A DNA stretch of 26,391 nt from an uncultured virus (IMG/VR IMGVR_UViG_2508501054_000004) (taxonomy: Duplodnaviria; Heunggongvirae; Uroviricota; Caudoviricetes): the IMG/VR virus record IMGVR_UViG_2508501054_000004; one strand, 5' to 3'. Positions within the stretch are counted from its first letter, which is position 1; each line of letters starts with the position of its first letter. This document shows positions 2,412 through 26,064 of the stretch, piece after piece. A model generated the notes under the pieces. It was not told the origin of the DNA. It saw nothing but the letters and a program-made list of their open reading frames with translations, and made no database searches. The position numbers were made by a program, and so were the translations under genes.

Positions 2412-3130
2412 GCCTGGCACTGGCGCACAAACGCCGCTTGATCGCAGAAGGCCCAGCGGCTGCGATGGCCGGTGCCCCAATGGCTTATTCGGCGGACACC
2501 GCGATGTCCAGCCCTGCCAATGCACGCAAGCACTTGAAGTTGATGGAAGACGCGCTGGCGGGCGATCTGGAGCGCATCAGCGCGATCAACAGCCACTCGC
2601 TGCGCCAGTTGCTCAAGCGTGACGAGCTGCTGCCCAAATACCTGGATTACGTACAGCGGTATCGCGATTCGGAATTGAATTTCCAGAACTCGGTGTTGGT
2701 GTACGTCCTGATCTGGCTGTTCGACACCGAGCAGTTTACGCAGGGCTTGGAGCTGGCCGATTTCGCCATGTCCCAAGGGCAGGCACTGCCTGAGCGCTTC
2801 AACCGTGACATTCCGACCTTTGTTGCAGACGAGGTGATCGACTGGGCTGAGGCTGAGTTCAAGGCCAGGCGCAGCCCTGAACCTTACGTTTCCAACTTGC
2901 TGCCCCGCGTGGATGGCGAATGGCAGCTGTATGAGCGCATTCCTGCTCGTTACCACAAGTTGCTGGGAATGATCGCGCTGCACCGCAAGGACTGGCCTGT
3001 AGCAATTCACCACTTCGAACGAGCCGAACAGCTCTACGAAAGCATCGGTGTAGGGACGCGCCTGGCTGACTGCCGCAAGGCGCTGGCCAAAGCACAAGCC
3101 ACCGCAAACGCCGGCAACGGCACCGAATAA
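2408..3130 (+). CDS. Terminase small/endonuclease subunit (P2 gpM family)
   Basis: Motifs KRDELLPKY and IWLFD...ALPERFNRDIPTFVADEV. ATGA overlap with the capsid gene. Confidence 0.9.
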   Translation: MSLALAHKRRLIAEGPAAAMAGAPMAYSADTAMSSPANARKHLKLMEDALAGDLERISAINSHSLRQLLKRDELLPKYLDYVQRYRDSELNFQNSVLVYVLIWLFDTEQFTQGLELADFAMSQGQALPERFNRDIPTFVADEVIDWAEAEFKARRSPEPYVSNLLPRVDGEWQLYERIPARYHKLLGMIALHRKDWPVAIHHFERAEQLYESIGVGTRLADCRKALAKAQATANAGNGTE

Positions 3131-3221
3131 CCGACTACCCCCCCCCGGCGAGAAACTGTGGATGTGAGCCAACCATTTATGGCCCTGACCCACTGAAACA
3201 GTTTTCCCGCCCCTAATAAAG

Positions 3222-3245
3222 AAGCCCCGCTTCGGCGGGGCTTTT
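3222..3245. terminator. Bidirectional intrinsic terminator
   Basis: AAGCCCCGC-TTCG-GCGGGGCTT hairpin, followed by TTTT on + and TTCTTTATT on -. It lies just downstream of the minus-strand XRE-like gene. Confidence 0.8.
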
Positions 3246-3269
3246 GAGAGGTTTCCAATGAGTGGTAGA

Positions 3270-3569
3270 TCACTGAGAGAGCTTATTAATCGTCACTTTG
3301 CCGTCCGGGAAAGTTACGGTTATTTCCAGCGTGCCACCTTTGGATCGGATGTATTTCCGCAAGGTTTCGATATAGGTGTCGGTAAACCTGATCCCTTTCG
3401 TTATCTCTTCGTAACTAAGTTCTTCATGGGCAGCCAAGCTGCCTTGGCTGGAAGAAAGAACGTCCTGCCACGTTGCCTCTATCTCTTTTTTATGAAGATC
3501 TTTTTCGGCAAGGCGTGCTCTGAGGCGATCACTCATATTTCCACTCGCGCTTACAGGCTTCTTCGTCAT
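3270..3569 (-). CDS. HigA/XRE-family antitoxin-like protein with divergent HTH (moron)
   Basis: The C-terminus TDTYIETLRKYIRSKGGTLEITVTFPDGKVTINKL matches the DMYISTLRxYIEAMGGELEIxARFPDG tail of XRE/HigA proteins. A GGAG lies upstream of the ATG, and GC is lower than in the flanking genes. Confidence 0.72.
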   Translation of the reverse strand: MTKKPVSASGNMSDRLRARLAEKDLHKKEIEATWQDVLSSSQGSLAAHEELSYEEITKGIRFTDTYIETLRKYIRSKGGTLEITVTFPDGKVTINKLSQ

Positions 3570-18414: not shown

Positions 18415-19041
18415 AGCGACAATTCCCTGAACTCACTGGTGGCTATCACTTGCCGCGCTTCGCCAAGGTCGTAGCCGTGGCGGATGCGCCGGCCAGCGCC
18501 GGGCTGTGTGACGACTTCCGACCGCGCTTCTCGGTCGACCTGCAGGTGATGGGGCCGTACGGCGAGATTGATACAGCGCTGCCGGTACTGGCCGGTGTGC
18601 CGCTGCCCATGCCGGTGGGCGGTGATGAAATGGGGTTCTTTGCCTTTCCGGAGGAGGGCACCAGCGTGGTGGTGTGCTTTGCCTATGGCCTACCGCACAA
18701 GCCCTACATCCAGACTATCCTGCCGCATGGACTGACACTGCCGAAGGTGCCCAAGGGCGACCAGGTGTGGCAGCACAGTGACGCCGTGCAACAGCGCGTC
18801 GACGCCGACGGCAACTGGCTGCGCAAGACCGATGGCAAAATCCTGGACCAAGCGATCGAGCGGGAAGTCGACGCCATGACGAACACCGAAAGCTTCCAGA
18901 GCCACACCAGGACGGTGGATGACCATTCGACCGAGTCAGTGGGTGGCGTGAAGAAGATCGAGGCCCTGGGCGCACTCAAGCTCCTGTCGGGCGGATCTGC
19001 GAGTCTTGCGGCAGTGGATGACCTGCACCAGGCTACTGGTA
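18387..19041 (+). CDS. Baseplate spike/gpV-like protein, 3' end lost in N gap
   Basis: OB-fold-like region FAFPEEGTSVVVCFAYG followed by beta-repeat-like HSTESVGGVKKIEALG. Confidence 0.7.
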
Positions 19042-19645
19042 NNNNNNNNNNNNNNNNNNNNNNNNNNNNNNNNNNNNNNNNNNNNNNNNNNNNNNNNNNN
19101 NNNNNNNNNNNNNNNNNNNNNNNNNNNNNNNNNNNNNNNNNNNNNNNNNNNNNNNNNNNNNNNNNNNNNNNNNNNNNNNNNNNNNNNNNNNNNNNNNNNN
19201 NNNNNNNNNNNNNNNNNNNNNNNNNNNNNNNNNNNNNNNNNNNNNNNNNNNNNNNNNNNNNNNNNNNNNNNNNNNNNNNNNNNNNNNNNNNNNNNNNNNN
19301 NNNNNNNNNNNNNNNNNNNNNNNNNNNNNNNNNNNNNNNNNNNNNNNNNNNNNNNNNNNNNNNNNNNNNNNNNNNNNNNNNNNNNNNNNNNNNNNNNNNN
19401 NNNNNNNNNNNNNNNNNNNNNNNNNNNNNNNNNNNNNNNNNNNNNNNNNNNNNNNNNNNNNNNNNNNNNNNNNNNNNNNNNNNNNNNNNNNNNNNNNNNN
19501 NNNNNNNNNNNNNNNNNNNNNNNNNNNNNNNNNNNNNNNNNNNNNNNNNNNNNNNNNNNNNNNNNNNNNNNNNNNNNNNNNNNNNNNNNNNNNNNNNNNN
19601 NNNNNNNNNNNNNNNNNNNNNNNNNNNNNNNNNNNNNNNNNNNNN

Positions 19646-20008
19646 CGACAGCCCGCCCGCGTACAATGAGGGATCGGGAGTGATTTCCTCGAAGCCGACC
19701 AACTCGGAAACCTTGGCCACCACGTCCGGATGCTGGATCGCATAGGTTATGTTGCTCAGGATCTCGGGGAAGTCACTCAGATCCGTCATCGTCTTTTTCT
19801 TCTCGCGGAACGACTGGCGATCGAAGAAACCGTCAGCTGCCTTTGGAAAAGCGTCGTAGATGGTCTGCGCCATATCATCGGTCAGAAGCTCGTCTACGAT
19901 GAAATGGCGGGTATGTGTGCCTGTCGGGTTGTTCCATTGATGCCGGATGTCGTGCTGCAGGCCGTCAAGTCGTTTGACCAGCATTGCAGCGATCTCGGGG
20001 ACGTTCAT
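19646..20008 (-). CDS. 2OG-Fe(II) oxygenase-family protein, 3' part in N gap
   Basis: HFIVDELL...IYDAFP and PDPSLYAGGLS are typical of the segment preceding the HxD motif in prolyl-hydroxylase-like oxygenases. RBS AAGGA. The HxD motif itself is not visible. Confidence 0.75.
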
Positions 20009-20146
20009 CTCTATTCCTTAGGGAGCGGAGCCAGGATTTCTAAAGCATCCATTGTCTGGCATTCAGCGATAATTTCAAAGGTTTGTTTGCAGTAACAGGA
20101 GGCGTTTCGCTCACTACGATCATAGCTGCTTCTCGGCCTTTACACG

Positions 20147-20230
20147 TTTATCTATGCGTCTTTCTATTGATTTTTCTATGCGTCTTCCTATTGGTCTTCC
20201 TATGCGCTTATCTATTTACTTATCTATTTA
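20147..20230. repeat. Tandem array of seven degenerate 12-bp units with invariant CTAT
   Basis: Units: TTTATCTATGCG, TCTTTCTATTGA, TTTTTCTATGCG, TCTTCCTATTGG, TCTTCCTATGCG, CTTATCTATTTA, CTTATCTATTTA. Confidence 0.9.
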
Positions 20231-20442
20231 GTTTTCGGTTTTTGCAGTTCGGCTGTTAGCCGTTAAGGCTTCATAGTGCAAAGTGTTTAATGTGTTTACT
20301 TTTTCGCGCACAAAGTAAACCGTCTGTCTGGTAAATGCCTACAACCTGCCTCTAATAAATCCCGATCTTTGGATGATCAAATTTGATCAATGCCCAAGCG
20401 ATATAAGGTTCTGAGCGATGTGTGATGGTTTGATGGCGAGCA

Positions 20443-20477
20443 GAAAAGACTCAGGCCCGCGCAATGGCGGGCCTGAG
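20443..20477 (-). terminator. Intrinsic terminator
   Basis: 11-bp stem CTCAGGCCCGC/GCGGGCCTGAG followed by TCTTTTCT on the minus strand. Confidence 0.85.
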
Positions 20478-20553
20478 AGGGAGGTTTCGGGGAAGATTTC
20501 TTATGCTAGGATCTTCCCGTCACCGTACAGCCATGCATCTTGGAACCAATGAA
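20443..20553 (-). ncRNA. Candidate ~110-nt small RNA
   Basis: Bounded by a promoter-like sequence and a terminator, with an internal hairpin (20490-20518) and no credible ORF. Confidence 0.55.
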
Positions 20554-20559
20554 TCTCCG

Positions 20560-20588
20560 AGGGTATGGCTAGCGCACCGATGCGTCAA
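20560..20588 (-). promoter_or_regulatory. Sigma70-like promoter for the candidate sRNA
   Basis: TTGACG-N17-TACCCT on the minus strand. Confidence 0.6.
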
Positions 20589-20729
20589 CAGTCAAATACG
20601 CATGCGGCATGCGTAATTTGCCTTCAAAGCTTTGAGCGAGCACGCGATTGATATTGTGAATATCTGCGAAAGTTTCTCTGCGCGTGGACGGTGACGACTT
20701 TTAAAAAGCCCAATGGCAACTCATCGTTG

Positions 20730-20745
20730 CTGTCTATGTATACAG
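20730..20745. promoter_or_regulatory. LexA (SOS) box
   Basis: CTGTCTATGTATACAG fits CTGT-N8-ACAG with a TA-rich spacer. Confidence 0.8.
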
Positions 20746-20756
20746 GAGATATTGGT

Positions 20757-20846
20757 ATGATGCGTTTCTTCCATGAAGAGCTGATTCGGACTCTGCAAAC
20801 CCTTTACTGGGCGTTGCGCTTGTACAGCGTAATCAAACAGCTTTGA
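20757..20846 (+). CDS. Unannotated 29-aa peptide MMRFFHEELIRTLQTLYWALRLYSVIKQL
   Basis: AGGAG lies 8 nt before the ATG, with a LexA box upstream and a terminator just downstream. Confidence 0.55.
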   Translation: MMRFFHEELIRTLQTLYWALRLYSVIKQL

Positions 20847-20853
20847 CCCTACC

Positions 20854-20888
20854 CGGGGCAGAGGTGGGTTCTCTGTCCCGTTTTGTTT
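20854..20888 (+). terminator. Intrinsic terminator
   Basis: CGGGGCAGAG/CTCTGTCCCG stem with one G-U pair, followed by TTTTGTTT. Confidence 0.8.
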
Positions 20889-20967
20889 AGGCTATTACTT
20901 ATAATGCGTAAAAATTATTCTAATTCGACGTATCCAGTTTTCCGTTGCACTTGCCTACCAGGCGATA

Positions 20968-21264
20968 TCACTGGTACCGACACCACCATGACTGGGCGTA
21001 GGCGCAGCCTTCGATGTGTTCGATTCCACTCAGCACGAACCCATTGTGGGCCATTGTGGCCAACGTTACGTCCAGCAGCTCCGGCAGCCGCTGCGCCTCC
21101 TTTGGCATGCCTGCATCGAGCCAGGCAACGTTTGCATGTCTGCCAAAATGATCGCAGTGAACTGATCGGACTATTACGTTCCCTAGTACCGCTTCGAAAC
21201 GGTCCCTTTCTCTTGGCTCCAACGCTACACCCTTGCGCCTCATTGGAACGACCAAGACCTGCAT
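20968..21264 (-). CDS. Hypothetical prophage protein, second gene of an SOS-box operon
   Basis: 98 aa ending GFVLSGIEHIEGCAYAQSWWCRYQ; TGATG overlap with the upstream gene. Confidence 0.75.
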   Translation of the reverse strand: MQVLVVPMRRKGVALEPRERDRFEAVLGNVIVRSVHCDHFGRHANVAWLDAGMPKEAQRLPELLDVTLATMAHNGFVLSGIEHIEGCAYAQSWWCRYQ

Positions 21265-21512
21265 CAGGCGGCACTGTCTGATGCGGGTAGGTCCAACTGC
21301 GCTTCAATTGCGTAGGCGAGCGCTCCGTCAGCTAACTCCAACATGTCGCTGTATTCCTCTGCGCTCACGATCTGAGAGGCGTGCAAAACGCCGGCCTGCC
21401 GGACCAGCAGCTTATGGTGAATGCCGGGACTTGTGAGCAATGCGCTGCTGTCGTCCAGAAGCGCGACCCATGCAGCAACCGCTGTTTTTTTCTCTGTGTT
21501 GACCGTGGACAT
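21264..21512 (-). CDS. Hypothetical helical prophage protein (82 aa)
   Basis: MSTVNTEKK...EEYSDMLELADGALAYAIE; GGAGG RBS and a LexA box upstream. Confidence 0.75.
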   Translation of the reverse strand: MSTVNTEKKTAVAAWVALLDDSSALLTSPGIHHKLLVRQAGVLHASQIVSAEEYSDMLELADGALAYAIEAQLDLPASDSAA

Positions 21513-21535: not shown

Positions 21536-21551
21536 CTGTATGCACATACAG
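21536..21551. promoter_or_regulatory. LexA (SOS) box
   Basis: TA-CTGTATGCACATACAG, close to consensus, ~24 nt upstream of the start codon. Confidence 0.88.
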
Positions 21552-22612
21552 GACATTCGGTTGATCTTGGTTTGCCACCGGTGTCCGATGAAATGCCTGC
21601 ATCCGCTTCAGAAAATCATCTGAGGAAAATTCGCTCNNNNNNNNNNNNNNNNNNNNNNNNNNNNNNNNNNNNNNNNNNNNNNNNNNNNNNNNNNNNNNNN
21701 NNNNNNNNNNNNNNNNNNNNNNNNNNNNNNNNNNNNNNNNNNNNNNNNNNNNNNNNNNNNNNNNNNNNNNNNNNNNNNNNNNNNNNNNNNNNNNNNNNNN
21801 NNNNNNNNNNNNNNNNNNNNNNNNNNNNNNNNNNNNNNNNNNNNNNNNNNNNNNNNNNNNNNNNNNNNNNNNNNNNNNNNNNNNNNNNNNNNNNNNNNNN
21901 NNNNNNNNNNNNNNNNNNNNNNNNNNNNNNNNNNNNNNNNNNNNNNNNNNNNNNNNNNNNNNNNNNNNNNNNNNNNNNNNNNNNNNNNNNNNNNNNNNNN
22001 NNNNNNNNNNNNNNNNNNNNNNNNNNNNNNNNNNNNNNNNNNNNNNNNNNNNNNNNNNNNNNNNNNNNNNNNNNNNNNNNNNNNNNNNNNNNNNNNNNNN
22101 NNNNNNNNNNNNNNNNNNNNNNNNNNNNNNNNNNNNNNNNNNNNNNNNNNNNNNNNNNNNNNNNNNNNNNNNNNNNNNNNNNNNNNNNNNNNNNNNNNNN
22201 NNNNNNNNNNNNNNNNNNNNNNNNNNNNNNNNNNNNNNNNNNNNNNNNNNNNNNNNNNNNNNNNNNNNNNNNNNNNNNNNNNNNNNNNNNNNNNNNNNNN
22301 NNNNNNNNNNNNNNNNNNNNNNNNNNNNNNNNNNNNNNNNNNNNNNNNNNNNNNNNNNNNNNNNNNNNNNNNNNNNNNNNNNNNNNNNNNNNNNNNNNNN
22401 NNNNNNAAATATTACCTTTGCTCGAAAACGCTGAAGGCCACGGTTTACAAGGGCTGCAGCCATTTTTTTCGAGTCATATTACTAATATTACCTTTTTTCA
22501 GACCCCTCTCGAATTTTGAGCATAGGCCTGTGAAGTCGCATGCATCATTCATGACGGTTGTGCTCACATCAGTCCGATAGGGTTGGGCAAGGGGAGGCGT
22601 AGCTTGACGGAT

Positions 22613-22984
22613 TTACTTTCTGGTTGCAGAACCGAAAACGAAGCCAAGGGCGGATGTGGTTATTCCATACAGCCATTTTCTTGCTTCGTTTAGCTCTGGT
22701 GTCTCGGTGACAAAGAAGCTGCCGACAACCAAGAGTGCCGAAACACCGATAACGAAGCCCGCAATGTTTGTCGGAGCAGCGCTGCTGGTCGAGCCCCAAA
22801 ATTTGCCGAGCCAGCCTAGGTTTTGTTGATTGTGCTGAAGGTGGAAATGCTCTTTGCCGTTAGCAAAAAACGCATTTTCATCATTCCCGGAGCCATTTAC
22901 TTGAGGCGAGGCTGACTCGGCAGTCGGATCGATCACTAAAGATCCGATCCGTCTAGCTTCGTCCTCCCCCTCCCCAGAAGTCAT
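22613..22984 (-). CDS. Putative membrane protein (123 aa), candidate PanT toxin
   Basis: ATGA overlap with the DUF4065 gene; two hydrophobic segments IAGFVIGVSALLVVGSFFV and WLYGITTSALGFVFG. Confidence 0.7.
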   Translation of the reverse strand: MTSGEGEDEARRIGSLVIDPTAESASPQVNGSGNDENAFFANGKEHFHLQHNQQNLGWLGKFWGSTSSAAPTNIAGFVIGVSALLVVGSFFVTETPELNEARKWLYGITTSALGFVFGSATRK

Positions 22985-23478
22985 GCCTGAGCTGCCGGTT
23001 GAGACTTCCTCACTGCTTCTTTGAAGTACGAAGAAATTTCTGCGAAAGGGATATCCACGCCTCGCATACCCTTGCACTTACTCCATGTTGTATCCCACGG
23101 TGTGCCAGACGCATGGGTCATTTCTGATAACCGAATGCCTGAATACTTTCCGTAGCTGTTGAACACATTTTGGAGAAAGGTTCGGACATTAGGATCTGAT
23201 GGCGTTGCCGCTTCCCTGACGCCAAGGGCGTCGTAATCGAACGCTTTGCACTGGATGTCCCCAGAGCCGAAGCGTTTGAATTCATGGTAAAGGGATGGGA
23301 TTACAGGACCGTATTGCCACGCTTCAACAGGCTCGTTGATCAAAGGGCGATCGGTATAGCCCGAATACCAGCCGTGCGCGTAGTACACCAGCTTTTGCAA
23401 TTTCATCGGACTAATAGACTGGCCACTGGCGGCTGCCAGCTCCAGAAAGTAATTAGCTATCGATTTTGCGCTGAACAC
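22981..23478 (-). CDS. Panacea/SocA (DUF4065, GepA-like) antitoxin-domain protein
   Basis: Signature IANYFL...SPMKLQKLVYYAHGW...EAWQYGPVIPSLY...LSEMTH..TPW; GTG start with GGAGG RBS. Confidence 0.92.
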   Translation of the reverse strand: MFSAKSIANYFLELAAASGQSISPMKLQKLVYYAHGWYSGYTDRPLINEPVEAWQYGPVIPSLYHEFKRFGSGDIQCKAFDYDALGVREAATPSDPNVRTFLQNVFNSYGKYSGIRLSEMTHASGTPWDTTWSKCKGMRGVDIPFAEISSYFKEAVRKSQPAAQA

Positions 23479-23624
23479 GATTTGATCCTCCAGGTGCACT
23501 GGGGTGACGAAAACTGCAGGAGCGTTCGCTCCGGTTCCTCTGGACACACCCTCAGTGAAGGAGTATGGCACAGCGGATTGTGTTTCCTATCATAAATCTA
23601 TAAGGGCGAAAAGCAACTAAAAAA

Positions 23625-23777: not shown

Positions 23778-23853
<76 letters not shown>

Positions 23854-23894: not shown

Positions 23895-24611
23895 GCCTAG
23901 CTGTCTGATTCAGTTGAAAAAAATCGACCGTTGGCGCTTCGGGTCGGATGTGGGCGGGTGGTGGTGCAGGACGTTTCTGTTGGTTTGGACGGATTGGTCT
24001 GTGTGGTAGGGCGGATGGCGTTGAATGCGGGCGTTGATCTTGCCTTTGGTGCGCACAGCTTGTGCCTGACAGAACGCTGGATTTTTAACCTGGTCGCGCA
24101 AACCAATACGTCCAGCGTTGATGGCGATTTGGCGTACGAACAGGCACCCATCCGACCCCGCCATTTTTGGGCAGTTGCGGGGCAGGAGGGCTTTGCATAG
24201 GCTTGTTCTCAACGGCCCAGGCTACTGAGTCAGCAGCACGGGTCGTTAGCTTTTCAGCCATGCAGATAAAGGACTATCTGATGAGTGATGCGATGGATCG
24301 TAACCGGGTTTGGGGTGTTGTTTGCCGCAGGCTGGTCATTCGCTGAAGAGTTGTTGAAGGATATTTGCAGATGCGCCTGGCCTGTTGGCTTTGCGCAGGG
24401 TGGGGCTGAGGATGGCTGTCTGAATCGCATGAATGTGCGTCTGGATGCCGACGAAGGCTTCATCGATGTATCAAGAAATGCCCGGATCCTCTGGATTCGG
24501 GCATTTTCTTGTGCGCTGGTTGCTGTTGCGTCGGATTTGCACTGGAGCTACCGGCTTTTTGGCCGATACAACTGTATCGAAAATGGCAGTCAGCCATGGA
24601 CAGCAAGTGCA

Positions 24612-25628
24612 ATGCAGAGAACGCCTACGCATTACGAGCTGCTGAGTGTTGCTCGCGATGCCTCTCCTGAGCAGATCAAGAAGGCTTATCGCAAGCTGGC
24701 GCAGAAGCTGCACCCGGACAGGAATCCAGATCCTTACGCCTCGGACATGATGGGCGTCGTCAACGCGTCTCACGATGTGCTGGCTGACCCTTCGCGGCGT
24801 GCGGCTTATGATGCGCAGCTCGCTGCCAATGAGCACAAGGCGCGTATCGATGCTGCGCGCCGCAAGCAGGCGCATGCAACGCGCGGGCAGGCGGTTCATG
24901 TGTATGCCGCCACGTCAGCAGCCGCGACCTCAGCGCCGTCTCAGGAGGCTCGTTCGGGACCGGCGCCCAAGTCCTCTTCCTACGCTTCTGCATCCCCTTC
25001 CCGTGACAGGCGTCGTCGCAGTGCGTGGCGTTGGGCGCTGTTGTTTGTGGTGTTCTGCGCGGGTGGGGCGTGGATGGGCTACGAACCGGGTGCGGGCAAG
25101 TCGTTTGTGCCGTCCGAGCCTGCGCCGGTTGCGCAGACGTGGGTCAAGCCCGCGCCTGCCGCGCCGGTCGAGGAGCCTGTAGCGAGCCCGGCGAAGCCTG
25201 CAGATGCGGCGGCGTCCGAGTGTGGCGTGCCGGCGCTTGATCCGATGGGCGCGCCTTGGCCGGACAAGGCGGGCTATGTGAAGGACATGCCGGTGCTCAA
25301 GGACAACGGCTGGTCGCAGATCACTGTGGATAACTCGGCGGGCGAGTCGGCGGTGTATGCCAAGGTTACAGATGCGGTGGGGCGCCGGGCGTTTCGGCAT
25401 GCGTTTGTGCCGGCCGGGGCGGTGTTTGTGTTCGCCAAGATGGACCCGGGGCTGTACCTGCTCAAGTACAAGATGATGAGTACGGGCTGTGCCTTTGCGT
25501 CGGGGCGGATTTTGCTGGAGGAGACGCCGATGGGCAGTCAGATCAAGTCCAGTGCCTACAAGCTGACGTTGCGCAAGCTGCAGAACCGCAGTGTGCCGTT
25601 TGCGCGGTTGAAGGATGATCAGTTTTAG
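24612..25628 (+). CDS. DnaJ (J-domain) membrane-anchored protein, host gene
   Basis: THYELLSV...IKKAYRKLAQKLHPDRN with HPD motif, then a TM segment WALLFVVFCAGGAWMGY and a C-terminal beta domain. Confidence 0.9.
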   Translation: MQRTPTHYELLSVARDASPEQIKKAYRKLAQKLHPDRNPDPYASDMMGVVNASHDVLADPSRRAAYDAQLAANEHKARIDAARRKQAHATRGQAVHVYAATSAAATSAPSQEARSGPAPKSSSYASASPSRDRRRRSAWRWALLFVVFCAGGAWMGYEPGAGKSFVPSEPAPVAQTWVKPAPAAPVEEPVASPAKPADAAASECGVPALDPMGAPWPDKAGYVKDMPVLKDNGWSQITVDNSAGESAVYAKVTDAVGRRAFRHAFVPAGAVFVFAKMDPGLYLLKYKMMSTGCAFASGRILLEETPMGSQIKSSAYKLTLRKLQNRSVPFARLKDDQF

Positions 25629-25668
25629 TAGTGGGTCATGACAGGAATGCGGCGCTGCGTATTCAGTC

Positions 25669-25691
25669 TTCGCGAACAAGTTCGCTCCTAC
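25669..25691 (-). repeat. Single Pseudomonas GTAG-type REP element
   Basis: The minus strand reads GTAGGAGCGAACTTGTTCGCGAA. Confidence 0.75.
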
Positions 25692-25812
25692 GGCCTTCGG
25701 CCAGAATCAAAGCGTCGTACTGTGAACTCACCTTTTGCAACGCTTTCAGGCGCGTTTTTGCAGGCACCGTCTCTTTCTTTTGAAGGACATTTCCGAGAGA
25801 ATCCCCGACCGC

Positions 25813-25841
25813 TTGCGCCCCTCTATCTGGGCTTCTACTCT
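25813..25841 (+). promoter_or_regulatory. Sigma70-like promoter of the C4 cassette
   Basis: TTGCGC-N17-TACTCT upstream of the a1/b1 sites. Confidence 0.5.
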
Positions 25842-25935
25842 CCGCCCGTCGCTGCCTATCAGCGATCGGGTTTAGTAGCCCGTAGTGAGTTAAGGCGTAA
25901 CACAGCCGCGTTTCATTAGGCTTCGTCCTGATGCT

Positions 25936-26014
25936 ATGGCGACTGTGCGCTTGGCACCTTCGGGTGCGCCGGTTCTTAGCTCACCGGTCTACTAACTCGC
26001 GTACAGTTGCCGCC
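25936..26014 (+). ncRNA. C4 antisense RNA motif (phage P1 C4/P4 CI-like cloverleaf)
   Basis: Closing stem GGCGACTGTGCGC/GCGTACAGTTGCC, hairpin GCACC-TTCG-GGTGC, and loops complementary to flanking sites. Confidence 0.82.
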
Positions 26015-26064
26015 TTTTCGTTTAGTAGCGAAATGGCAGCGACTTCAATAGAAGGAGCTAAAGC

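Follow-up and report, generated by a model that had tools for sequence, protein, structure and literature searches.

Positions 20730..20888 of IMG/VR record IMGVR_UViG_2508501054_000004, a 26,391 nt stretch from an uncultured member of the Caudoviricetes (the window, meaning here the whole 26.4 kb stretch that was analysed, with the locus inside it), hold a 29-codon reading frame that is very probably a genuine and previously uncharacterised conserved micro-protein gene of the cargo end of a prophage. The comparisons lean towards an antisense-controlled gene with a type I-like layout, to which a LexA box has been added in one lineage and which would encode a helix of a different kind from that of TisB. 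A preliminary description of the locus had proposed a hidden, SOS-regulated micro-gene, and each of the parts that it named (box, AGGAG, ATG, 29-aa frame, terminator, and extended -10) was found where it had been placed. The core of that proposal, an unannotated prophage micro-gene with a ribosome-binding site, its own terminator, and a consensus LexA box, is borne out. The parts are:

20730..20745, no strand assigned: consensus LexA box CTGTCTATGTATACAG, overlapping the Shine-Dalgarno (SD) sequence by 2 nt
20744..20748, plus strand: SD sequence AGGAG, 8 nt 5′ of the ATG at 20757
20753-20761, plus strand: extended -10 TGGTATGAT of the preliminary description, present in the sequence
20757..20846, plus strand: micro-protein gene, 29 codons plus TGA (20844-46), product MMRFFHEELIRTLQTLYWALRLYSVIKQL
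20854..20888, plus strand: intrinsic terminator of the micro-gene, 11-bp stem (hairpin 20854-20880), loop of 5, tail TTTTGTTTAG

The terminator hairpin begins at the eighth base past the stop codon, and its stem is retained in relatives through G-U/G-C and A-U/U-G changes. A 51-aa frame starting at a GTG was rejected as the gene, since a 1-base deletion in locus L004 breaks it 5′ of the ATG; the gene therefore starts at the ATG. The 51-aa frame has no match in PHROGs or NCBIfam.

Close relatives were drawn from IMG/VR contigs, one metagenome contig, and one P. syringae genome. In total 14 loci were read, comprising clade A (the window, L004, and L007), clade B (L006 and L011), and the distant loci L017-L025. 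L005 and L009 are identical in sequence to the window, and L008, from an AT-rich metagenome contig, contains an in-frame stop, was judged a chance match, and is left out of all counts.

Comparison of the window with L006 shows 13.5 synonymous differences over 19.8 sites and 5.5 non-synonymous differences over 67.2 sites (proportions pS 0.68 and pN 0.08; omega ~0.05; Fisher p 2e-7), and the sole length difference between them is an in-frame 3-nt indel, an AAG codon. Among the close relatives, the variable columns are distributed 6/2/14 over codon positions 1/2/3. For the core of the family, based on 11 representatives, pN/pS is 0.34 in the frame of the open reading frame (ORF), against 0.92 and 1.60 in the other frames of the same strand and 0.91, 0.51, and 2.23 on the opposite strand. 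The dN/dS comparison proposed in the preliminary description thus supports purifying selection on this frame. Both the ORF and its ribosome-binding site are conserved in homologous loci: there is a coding-type pattern in the 13 other loci, and an SD-type motif (GGAG, GGGAG, AGGA, GAGG, or GAG) lies 8-13 nt 5′ of the start read in all 14. Immediately past the stop, most of the distant loci carry a GC-rich hairpin and a tail rich in T; the tails of L017 and L023 are not rich in T.

A profile search of 1.84 billion representatives found six proteins at E<=0.001, one of which clusters with entries from the P. syringae group that are annotated as 40-aa hypothetical proteins, PSPPH_4948 of P. savastanoi pv. 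phaseolicola 1448A among them. Six-frame profile searches identified a family member in 10 of 401 sampled Pseudomonas genomes and, in the class sample with the centre genome set aside, one weak match (22.6 bits) in 399 scored genomes. Members of the family are 29-42 aa long and share the core motif [R/K][F/Y]x[P/H]EE[L/M]IRxLQxxYWxxRL, in which R, F, L-I-R, L-Q, Y-W, and L are invariant. Annotation usually overlooks genes of about 30 codons or gives them a wrong start, and members of this family are either absent from it or called at 40-53 aa from wrong starts. An exact 33-mer had no match in genome contigs, and tblastn of the peptide, which had been suggested beforehand for Pseudomonas prophages, gave nothing at E<=10 against 50,697 phage records. 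At the blastn level, the 401 Pseudomonas genomes yielded one genome only (G003), plus three short chance matches. The 460-aa protein P0011, listed in the cluster of one peptide, is not a relative; its sequence reads as a flavoprotein disulfide reductase. PSPPH_4948 and six neighbouring locus tags are named in no paper in the indexed literature, supplementary tables lying outside the indexed text, and it yielded no account of the micro-protein family, or of type I systems in prophages of P. syringae.

As judged from its composition, the product is cationic and forms one amphipathic helix, with leucines on a heptad-like face, that is not membrane-spanning. The peptide has a net charge of +2 and contains 3 Arg, 1 Lys, 2 Glu, and 2 Gln, with a charged or polar residue every 3-4 positions, and its hydrophobic residues are spaced 4-3-4-3 (L9, L13, L16, L20, and Y23). 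The grand average of hydropathy (GRAVY) is 0.24 and the best 19-residue Kyte-Doolittle window reaches 0.65, far under that of a membrane-spanning helix. There is thus no membrane-spanning stretch to support the membrane-active single helix proposed initially, and the likeness to TisB and DinQ drawn with it is reduced to one of size. Pfam, including TisB_toxin (PF13939) and DinQ (PF28061), gave no match at E<=10 for three family members. The nearest clusters in the Atlas are those of DinQ and TisB, with a feature score of 0.78 that is below the lead threshold of 0.9 and at a level often reached by shuffled proteins. A PDB profile search with the peptide returned a 7-residue coincidence only.

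Upstream of the gene there is further conservation, which on the plus strand can be resolved into three elements:

20504..20512, plus strand: promoter-like extended -10 element TGCTAGGAT, with TGnTAnnn[T/C] at the equivalent place in 11 of 14 loci
20519..20756, plus strand: predicted leader of ~240 nt, conserved at the nucleotide level, running from a predicted transcription start site (TSS) near 20519
20531..20568, plus strand: 5′ stem-loop of the leader, GCCATGCATCTTGG / CCGAGGGTATGG, 12 pairs, compared in 12 loci

Clades A and B are 85-86% identical over the non-coding positions 20478-20699 and 86% identical in the gene for a 98-aa protein downstream, against 53-56% over 20700-20756, 34-39% in the spacer past the terminator, and a synonymous difference of 0.65-0.68 in the ORF. 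The core of the conserved upstream stretch is common to the distant loci too, and a GTATGGC anchor lies 188-239 nt 5′ of the ORF match in 12 of the 14. The distance between leader and ORF is thus almost fixed, and it is from this constancy only that we infer a probable continuity of the leader RNA with the ORF transcript.

Across the stem-loop, 135 of 144 cells can pair on the plus strand versus 105 on the minus strand, with 30 G-U pairs versus none. The covariation score is 0.356 against 0.252 for shuffled alignments and was reached by none of 500 shuffles, with three pairs changing on both sides; when the partner is slid, paired cells drop from 93.8% to 30-51%. The pairing and covariation of this plus-strand helix therefore argue that the plus strand is transcribed here. 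A mok-type leader ORF (20533-20616) was considered and rejected, as it changes like non-coding DNA (3 synonymous versus 9 non-synonymous codon changes); this open frame is missing in L018 and later loci. Rfam 15 has nothing at gathering score across 20000-21000, and at E<=10 there are weak matches only, to Bp1_684 (E 0.11, minus strand, 20762-20874) and mir-1537 (E 7.9). Also within this region, a 12-nt inverted repeat (20518-20529 / 20685-20696, CGTCACCGTACA / TGGACGGTGACG), both arms of which are invariant between the clades, would close a domain of ~180 nt from the predicted plus-strand TSS; GGTGACG could instead pair with CGTTGCT just 5′ of the LexA box.

Facing this leader, the minus strand carries a second set of elements:

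20560..20588, minus strand: promoter-like element, TTGACG (20588..20583), 17 nt, TACCCT (20565..20560)
20441..20553, minus strand: predicted antisense small RNA (sRNA) of ~113 nt, overlapping the first ~35 nt of the plus-strand leader
20450..20477, minus strand: intrinsic terminator, 11-bp stem with 9 GC, tail TCTTTTCTG

The pattern TTGAC[G/T]-N17-TAnnCT is present in 13 of 14 loci, and L025 has N18 with TATCTT, giving TTGAC[G/T]-N17/18-TAnnnT in every locus. The two most invariant motifs of the region, GGGTA and GTCAA, are the bases of this minus-strand promoter-like element. Downstream of the predicted minus-strand TSS, at 75-128 nt, 13 of 14 loci have a GC-rich hairpin and a tail rich in T; the 5′ ends predicted for the two RNAs overlap by 33-46 nt, in most cases 35, in the 11 loci with both promoters. 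For the predicted 113-nt RNA, the fold has -40.2 kcal/mol (z -2.95; 1 of 200 shuffles did as well) and consists of a relatively loose 5′ portion followed by a hairpin and the terminator. The terminator stem is kept with changes on both sides in four of nine pairs (12 loci), and a consensus fold of the whole predicted sRNA recovered the terminator alone. Together these features make the existence of the antisense sRNA marginally probable.

The consensus bound by LexA is CTGT-ATATATAT-ACAG. There are three perfect CTGT-N8-ACAG sites in the window against 0.40 expected, and three or more were seen in 2 of 100 shuffles. The box at 20730-45 is unchanged in L004, L007, and contigs of four runs (seven clade A sequences), its counterpart in clade B is degenerate (CTATCCATTCATACAG), and there is no box ahead of the ORF in L017-L025. 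Of the four differences between the clade A and clade B versions, three are toward the consensus. The box overlaps no sigma-70-like promoter whose transcript would include the SD sequence and the ATG; the sole plus-strand sigma-70-like match near it, TCTATG-17-TATGAT with TG (7/12), has a predicted start at ~20768, inside the ORF. Based on these comparisons, we conclude that the box is likely to be a recent addition in the lineage of the window, inside and not at the start of the transcription unit of the family. SOS regulation as first proposed therefore stands in part: the consensus box is present, and two more LexA-boxed cargo operons lie in the window, but SOS control is not family-wide (3 of 14 loci) and the box is without an overlapping promoter that would include the ORF. 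Whether LexA binds the box and matters in the lineage of the window is judged evenly balanced.

In the arrangement proposed, the micro-gene would be made as an mRNA of ~370 nt (~20519-20888) with a long structured leader, and the facing minus-strand promoter would make an sRNA of ~110 nt (~20553-20441) that ends at the hairpin 20477-20450. It would pair without a mismatch to the leader over its first ~35 nt, the 5′ arm of the stem-loop among them, and would keep the mRNA repressed, in a layout like that of type I toxin-antitoxin loci of the hok/sok or ldrD/rdlD kind. At 29 aa, the product is within the usual size of type I toxins, which is under 60 aa. In the lineage of the window only, a consensus LexA operator appears to have arisen between the leader and the SD sequence. 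Two other cargo operons with LexA boxes lie next to it, which makes it probable that LexA adds a dependence on SOS at this locus, the most plausible route being a roadblock within the leader as it is transcribed. The micro-protein would act by binding a protein partner or the membrane surface, and not as a TisB-like transmembrane pore. It is possible, though doubtful, that the product is growth-inhibitory and thus a true type I toxin.

A number of observations weigh against this arrangement. The perfect box ahead of the ORF is confined to 3 of 14 loci, all from one close clade, a single stray box in 26 kb is not unlikely at 0.40 expected per window, and the conserved promoter-like element of the family lies ~210 nt 5′ of the box, an unusual site for repression. 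The two promoters and the antisense RNA are predicted from motif conservation alone. The minus-strand -10 is weak (3-4/6), and since the 3′ arm of the plus-strand helix is built from its invariant bases, their conservation can be explained in a second way. The upstream hairpin may simply be a late-operon terminator, and its cells, with six G-U versus four A-C, give no indication of strand. Predicted occlusion of the SD sequence by the leader varies from locus to locus, with unpaired probabilities of 0.0-0.5 and no partner common between loci. Finally, the peptide lacks the hydrophobicity of almost all type I toxins, which are typically hydrophobic or membrane-spanning, with exceptions such as SymE.

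The preliminary description had favoured a TisB/DinQ-like, LexA-induced type I toxin, whose helix would insert in the inner membrane and collapse its potential, with effects on dormancy, lysis timing, or exclusion. The type I idea fares better than its membrane toxin: a type I-like layout does emerge, from the leader and the predicted antisense RNA upstream, neither of which had been noticed, whereas the case for a toxin of the TisB/DinQ type is weak. The 29-aa product is of the same size class, the gene has a perfect LexA box, an SD sequence, and its own terminator, as well as the long leader and predicted antisense RNA, the Atlas puts DinQ and TisB nearest (0.78), and TisB and DinQ are themselves LexA-controlled, according to the part of the source available (PMC4147584). 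However, the Atlas score falls under the lead threshold, and short helices of equal length cluster together; Pfam, TisB_toxin and DinQ included, is silent at E<=10; the hydropathy values and charged residues leave no membrane-spanning stretch; the family-invariant residues are Arg, Gln, Tyr, and Trp; and the box is lineage-specific and overlaps no ORF-containing promoter. A membrane toxin of this type is therefore considered unlikely. The reading put forward there as the alternative, an SOS-induced sRNA of ~115-120 nt from the extended -10, with a start at ~20768, the LexA box over the -35, and an incidental ORF, is highly improbable. The element is the only plus-strand sigma-70-like match near the box, a box over the -35 is the classical geometry for LexA repression, and the terminator would yield a discrete RNA; yet an RNA without a start codon can explain neither the purifying selection specific to the frame nor the in-frame indel, nor the presence of SD-type motifs at all 14 loci. 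In addition, the -10 has lost its T6 in L007 and run X1 (20761 T>A), its TG is missing in clade B, and there is no such element in other family members, because TATGAT here is just the ATG ATG codons. With protein-level selection and these losses, the sRNA is not sustained as the main product; there may be an additional SOS-induced short transcript in the sublineage of the window itself.

A more plausible competitor, though still rather improbable, is a non-toxic regulatory micro-protein, the amphipathic helix of which would bind a phage or host protein, for example the products of the p82/p98 operon that converges on the micro-gene or the prophage switch, the upstream elements then being ordinary expression control. 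The heptad-like face L9-L13-L16-L20-Y23 and the net positive charge fit this, as does linkage: a homologue of the p98 gene is convergent, 40-75 nt past the micro-gene stop, in 10 of 14 loci, with a p82 homologue in 9 of 14, and the LexA box of this operon is perfect in eight of the nine loci with both genes (the window, L004, L007, L006, L011, L023, L024, and L025). In 186, N15, and the Gifsy phages, antirepressors are the products of small LexA-boxed operons located at the prophage edge, in the portion of the source at hand (PMC3121763). Against it, L017, L018, L019, and L022 keep the micro-gene with other cargo in place of p82/p98, and these two genes are therefore frequent and not obligate companions, so that obligate partnership does not hold; neither protein has a recognisable fold relative, and nothing ties them to repressors. 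The antisense-controlled, type I-like gene is the reading carried forward here.

Among known systems, the closest are the type I loci. In the sections of PMC4147584 consulted, the antisense RNA of hok/sok and ldrD/rdlD overlaps a long 5′ untranslated region, and the promoter is embedded in the toxin leader. The present locus resembles these, on the same partial text, in its predicted structured leader and in an antisense RNA of ~60-110 nt with its own terminator, which is predicted here (PMC4147584). It differs in that a leader ORF of the mok/ldrX kind is not conserved and the product is not hydrophobic, and in being known from sequence alone. The tisB/istR-1 and dinQ/agrB loci of E. coli, as far as the available parts of two sources describe them, also have a single-helix ORF of 27-29 codons, a 5′ leader of some length, and, beside or inside that leader, a gene for a small RNA (leader and RNA being predicted in the present case), as well as a LexA box, which here is found in one lineage (PMC4147584; PMC13159721). 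There is no sequence relationship to tisB or dinQ. Their peptides are hydrophobic, whereas the present one is amphipathic and cationic; the present LexA box is in the leader beside the SD sequence and not at the promoter, in three of 14 loci only; and the RNA predicted here would be cis-antisense to the 5′ end of the leader, and not a divergent trans-acting gene.

A small-peptide gene with an antisense RNA (predicted, in the present case) as prophage cargo is shared with phiCD630-1 of C. difficile, yonT/SR6 of SPbeta in B. subtilis, and sprG1/SprF1 of S. aureus, going by excerpts of the published accounts, and the same excerpts report for the C. difficile prophage modules a role in keeping the element. 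Those systems, as excerpted, differ in their Firmicute hosts, their hydrophobic membrane peptides, and their mostly 3′-overlapping antisense RNAs. No relationship to prophage type I systems was found by Pfam or PHROGs, the only sequence comparisons made. Few type I-like modules have, to our knowledge, been described in Pseudomonas. Functional analogy can also be drawn to the LexA-boxed antirepressor operons, such as Tum of 186, AntC of N15, and those of the dinI-gfoA type of Gifsy phages, which the accessible part of the source describes as small and outside the immunity region (PMC3121763). Their wiring, within that account, is common to the p82/p98 operon and, in the lineage of the window, to the micro-gene (PMC3121763). 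The analogy is functional only; no sequence or fold similarity of p82 or p98 to DinI or known antirepressors was found. The micro-protein is far smaller than any antirepressor that we know of.

For prophages of plant-associated Pseudomonas, the locus offers a concrete module that joins a micro-protein to a structured leader, a predicted antisense RNA, and, in one lineage, a LexA box. A natural experiment on prophage cargo becoming SOS-controlled is provided by the sister clades that have the box (the window, L004, and L007) or lack it (L006 and L011), and if this is a type I-like family with a recent LexA operator, the birth of SOS control could be compared between them. A strongly conserved peptide that is not hydrophobic suggests an action unlike that of the membrane toxins dominating the type I class. 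It can be proposed, tentatively, that this is the first type I-like family of Pseudomonas prophages with face-to-face promoters and a soluble or interfacial micro-protein bearing an invariant LIR-LQ-YW-RL face, into which SOS control has recently been wired in one lineage of the P. syringae group.

The window is the right arm of a P2-like prophage, in which cargo genes stand behind the spike gene and are followed by a tRNA-Thr. Tail-fibre, HP1-ORF34-type baseplate, and gpV/Gp5 spike genes are on the plus strand up to ~19.7 kb, and the tail genes are similar at the DNA level to those of Pseudomonas phages UFJF_PfPro and phi3 (Peduoviridae, Phitrevirus), both of which are without the micro-gene. 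The spike gene is upstream in the window, L006, L018, L019, L020, and L022. By this gene order, the micro-gene belongs to the cargo end of phi3-like Pseudomonas prophages (Peduoviridae, P2-like) and comes directly behind the gene for the baseplate spike, and the P2-like tail genes upstream and the cargo position agree with the prophage origin first proposed. Runs of N mask ~19020-19680 (the spike/oxygenase region) and ~21638-22400 (upstream of the 82-aa operon), so that genes there are unreadable. The convergent operon consists of:

21536..21551, no strand assigned: LexA box CTGTATGCACATACAG, 23 nt 5′ of the ATG of the 82-aa gene
21512..21264, minus strand: p82, 82 aa, phrog_6137, first gene of the convergent operon
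21264..20968, minus strand: p98, 98 aa, phrog_5560, overlapping the p82 gene at an ATGA junction

AlphaFold2 (AF2) models of p98 (all-beta, predicted local distance difference test score, pLDDT, 86.8) and p82 (helical bundle, pLDDT 89.2) had no PDB match at E<=0.001 in fold searches. Neither protein, nor a 154-aa ORF further along, has a match in Pfam, NCBIfam, or PADLOC. The C-terminus of p98, GFVLSGIEYIDGCAYAQSWWCR, is nearly invariant, and in phages vB_PstS-pAN and PG1 a p98 homologue follows a gene for an SOS-response-associated peptidase (SRAP/YedK-type).

The third perfect LexA box (23625-40) lies ~54 nt 5′ of a SocA/Panacea-domain gene (23571..22981, minus strand, Pfam E 3e-20), which is followed and overlapped by the 154-aa ORF (23077..22613, minus strand), of no known family; these two genes may form a Panacea-type toxin-antitoxin pair under SOS control. 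A 2OG-Fe(II) oxygenase-like cargo gene is present at ~19700-20008 (minus strand, partly masked) and in L006 at 2460-3278, where it encodes 272 aa (PADLOC '2OG', E 3.7e-12); this insertion, which separates the spike gene from the micro-gene module, is confined to clades A and B. Between that gene and the leader there are a tandem array (20147-20230, period 12/24, ~3.4 copies, unit CTATGCGTCTTC), GTTTAC/GTAAAC repeats at 20285-20325 (within 20285-20389), and a perfect 16-bp palindrome, TGATCAAATTTGATCA, at 20374-89, which is kept in clade B. In L018 and L019, large GTAAAC/GTTTAC palindromes lie between the leader and the ORF. The array, repeats, and palindromes may be operator or arm-type sites.

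The tRNA-Thr (TGT; 23778-23853, minus strand) carries a terminator of its own; it probably bounds the cargo region as the attachment site of the prophage. Past it, there is a second mobile-element-like stretch (24285-26017) with a DnaJ-domain protein (phrog_11153, E 1.6e-208), and a C4 antisense RNA (25932-26017, 68.8 bits) with an a1/b1 target (25835-25886, 61.8 bits), together a P1/P7-type immunity module.

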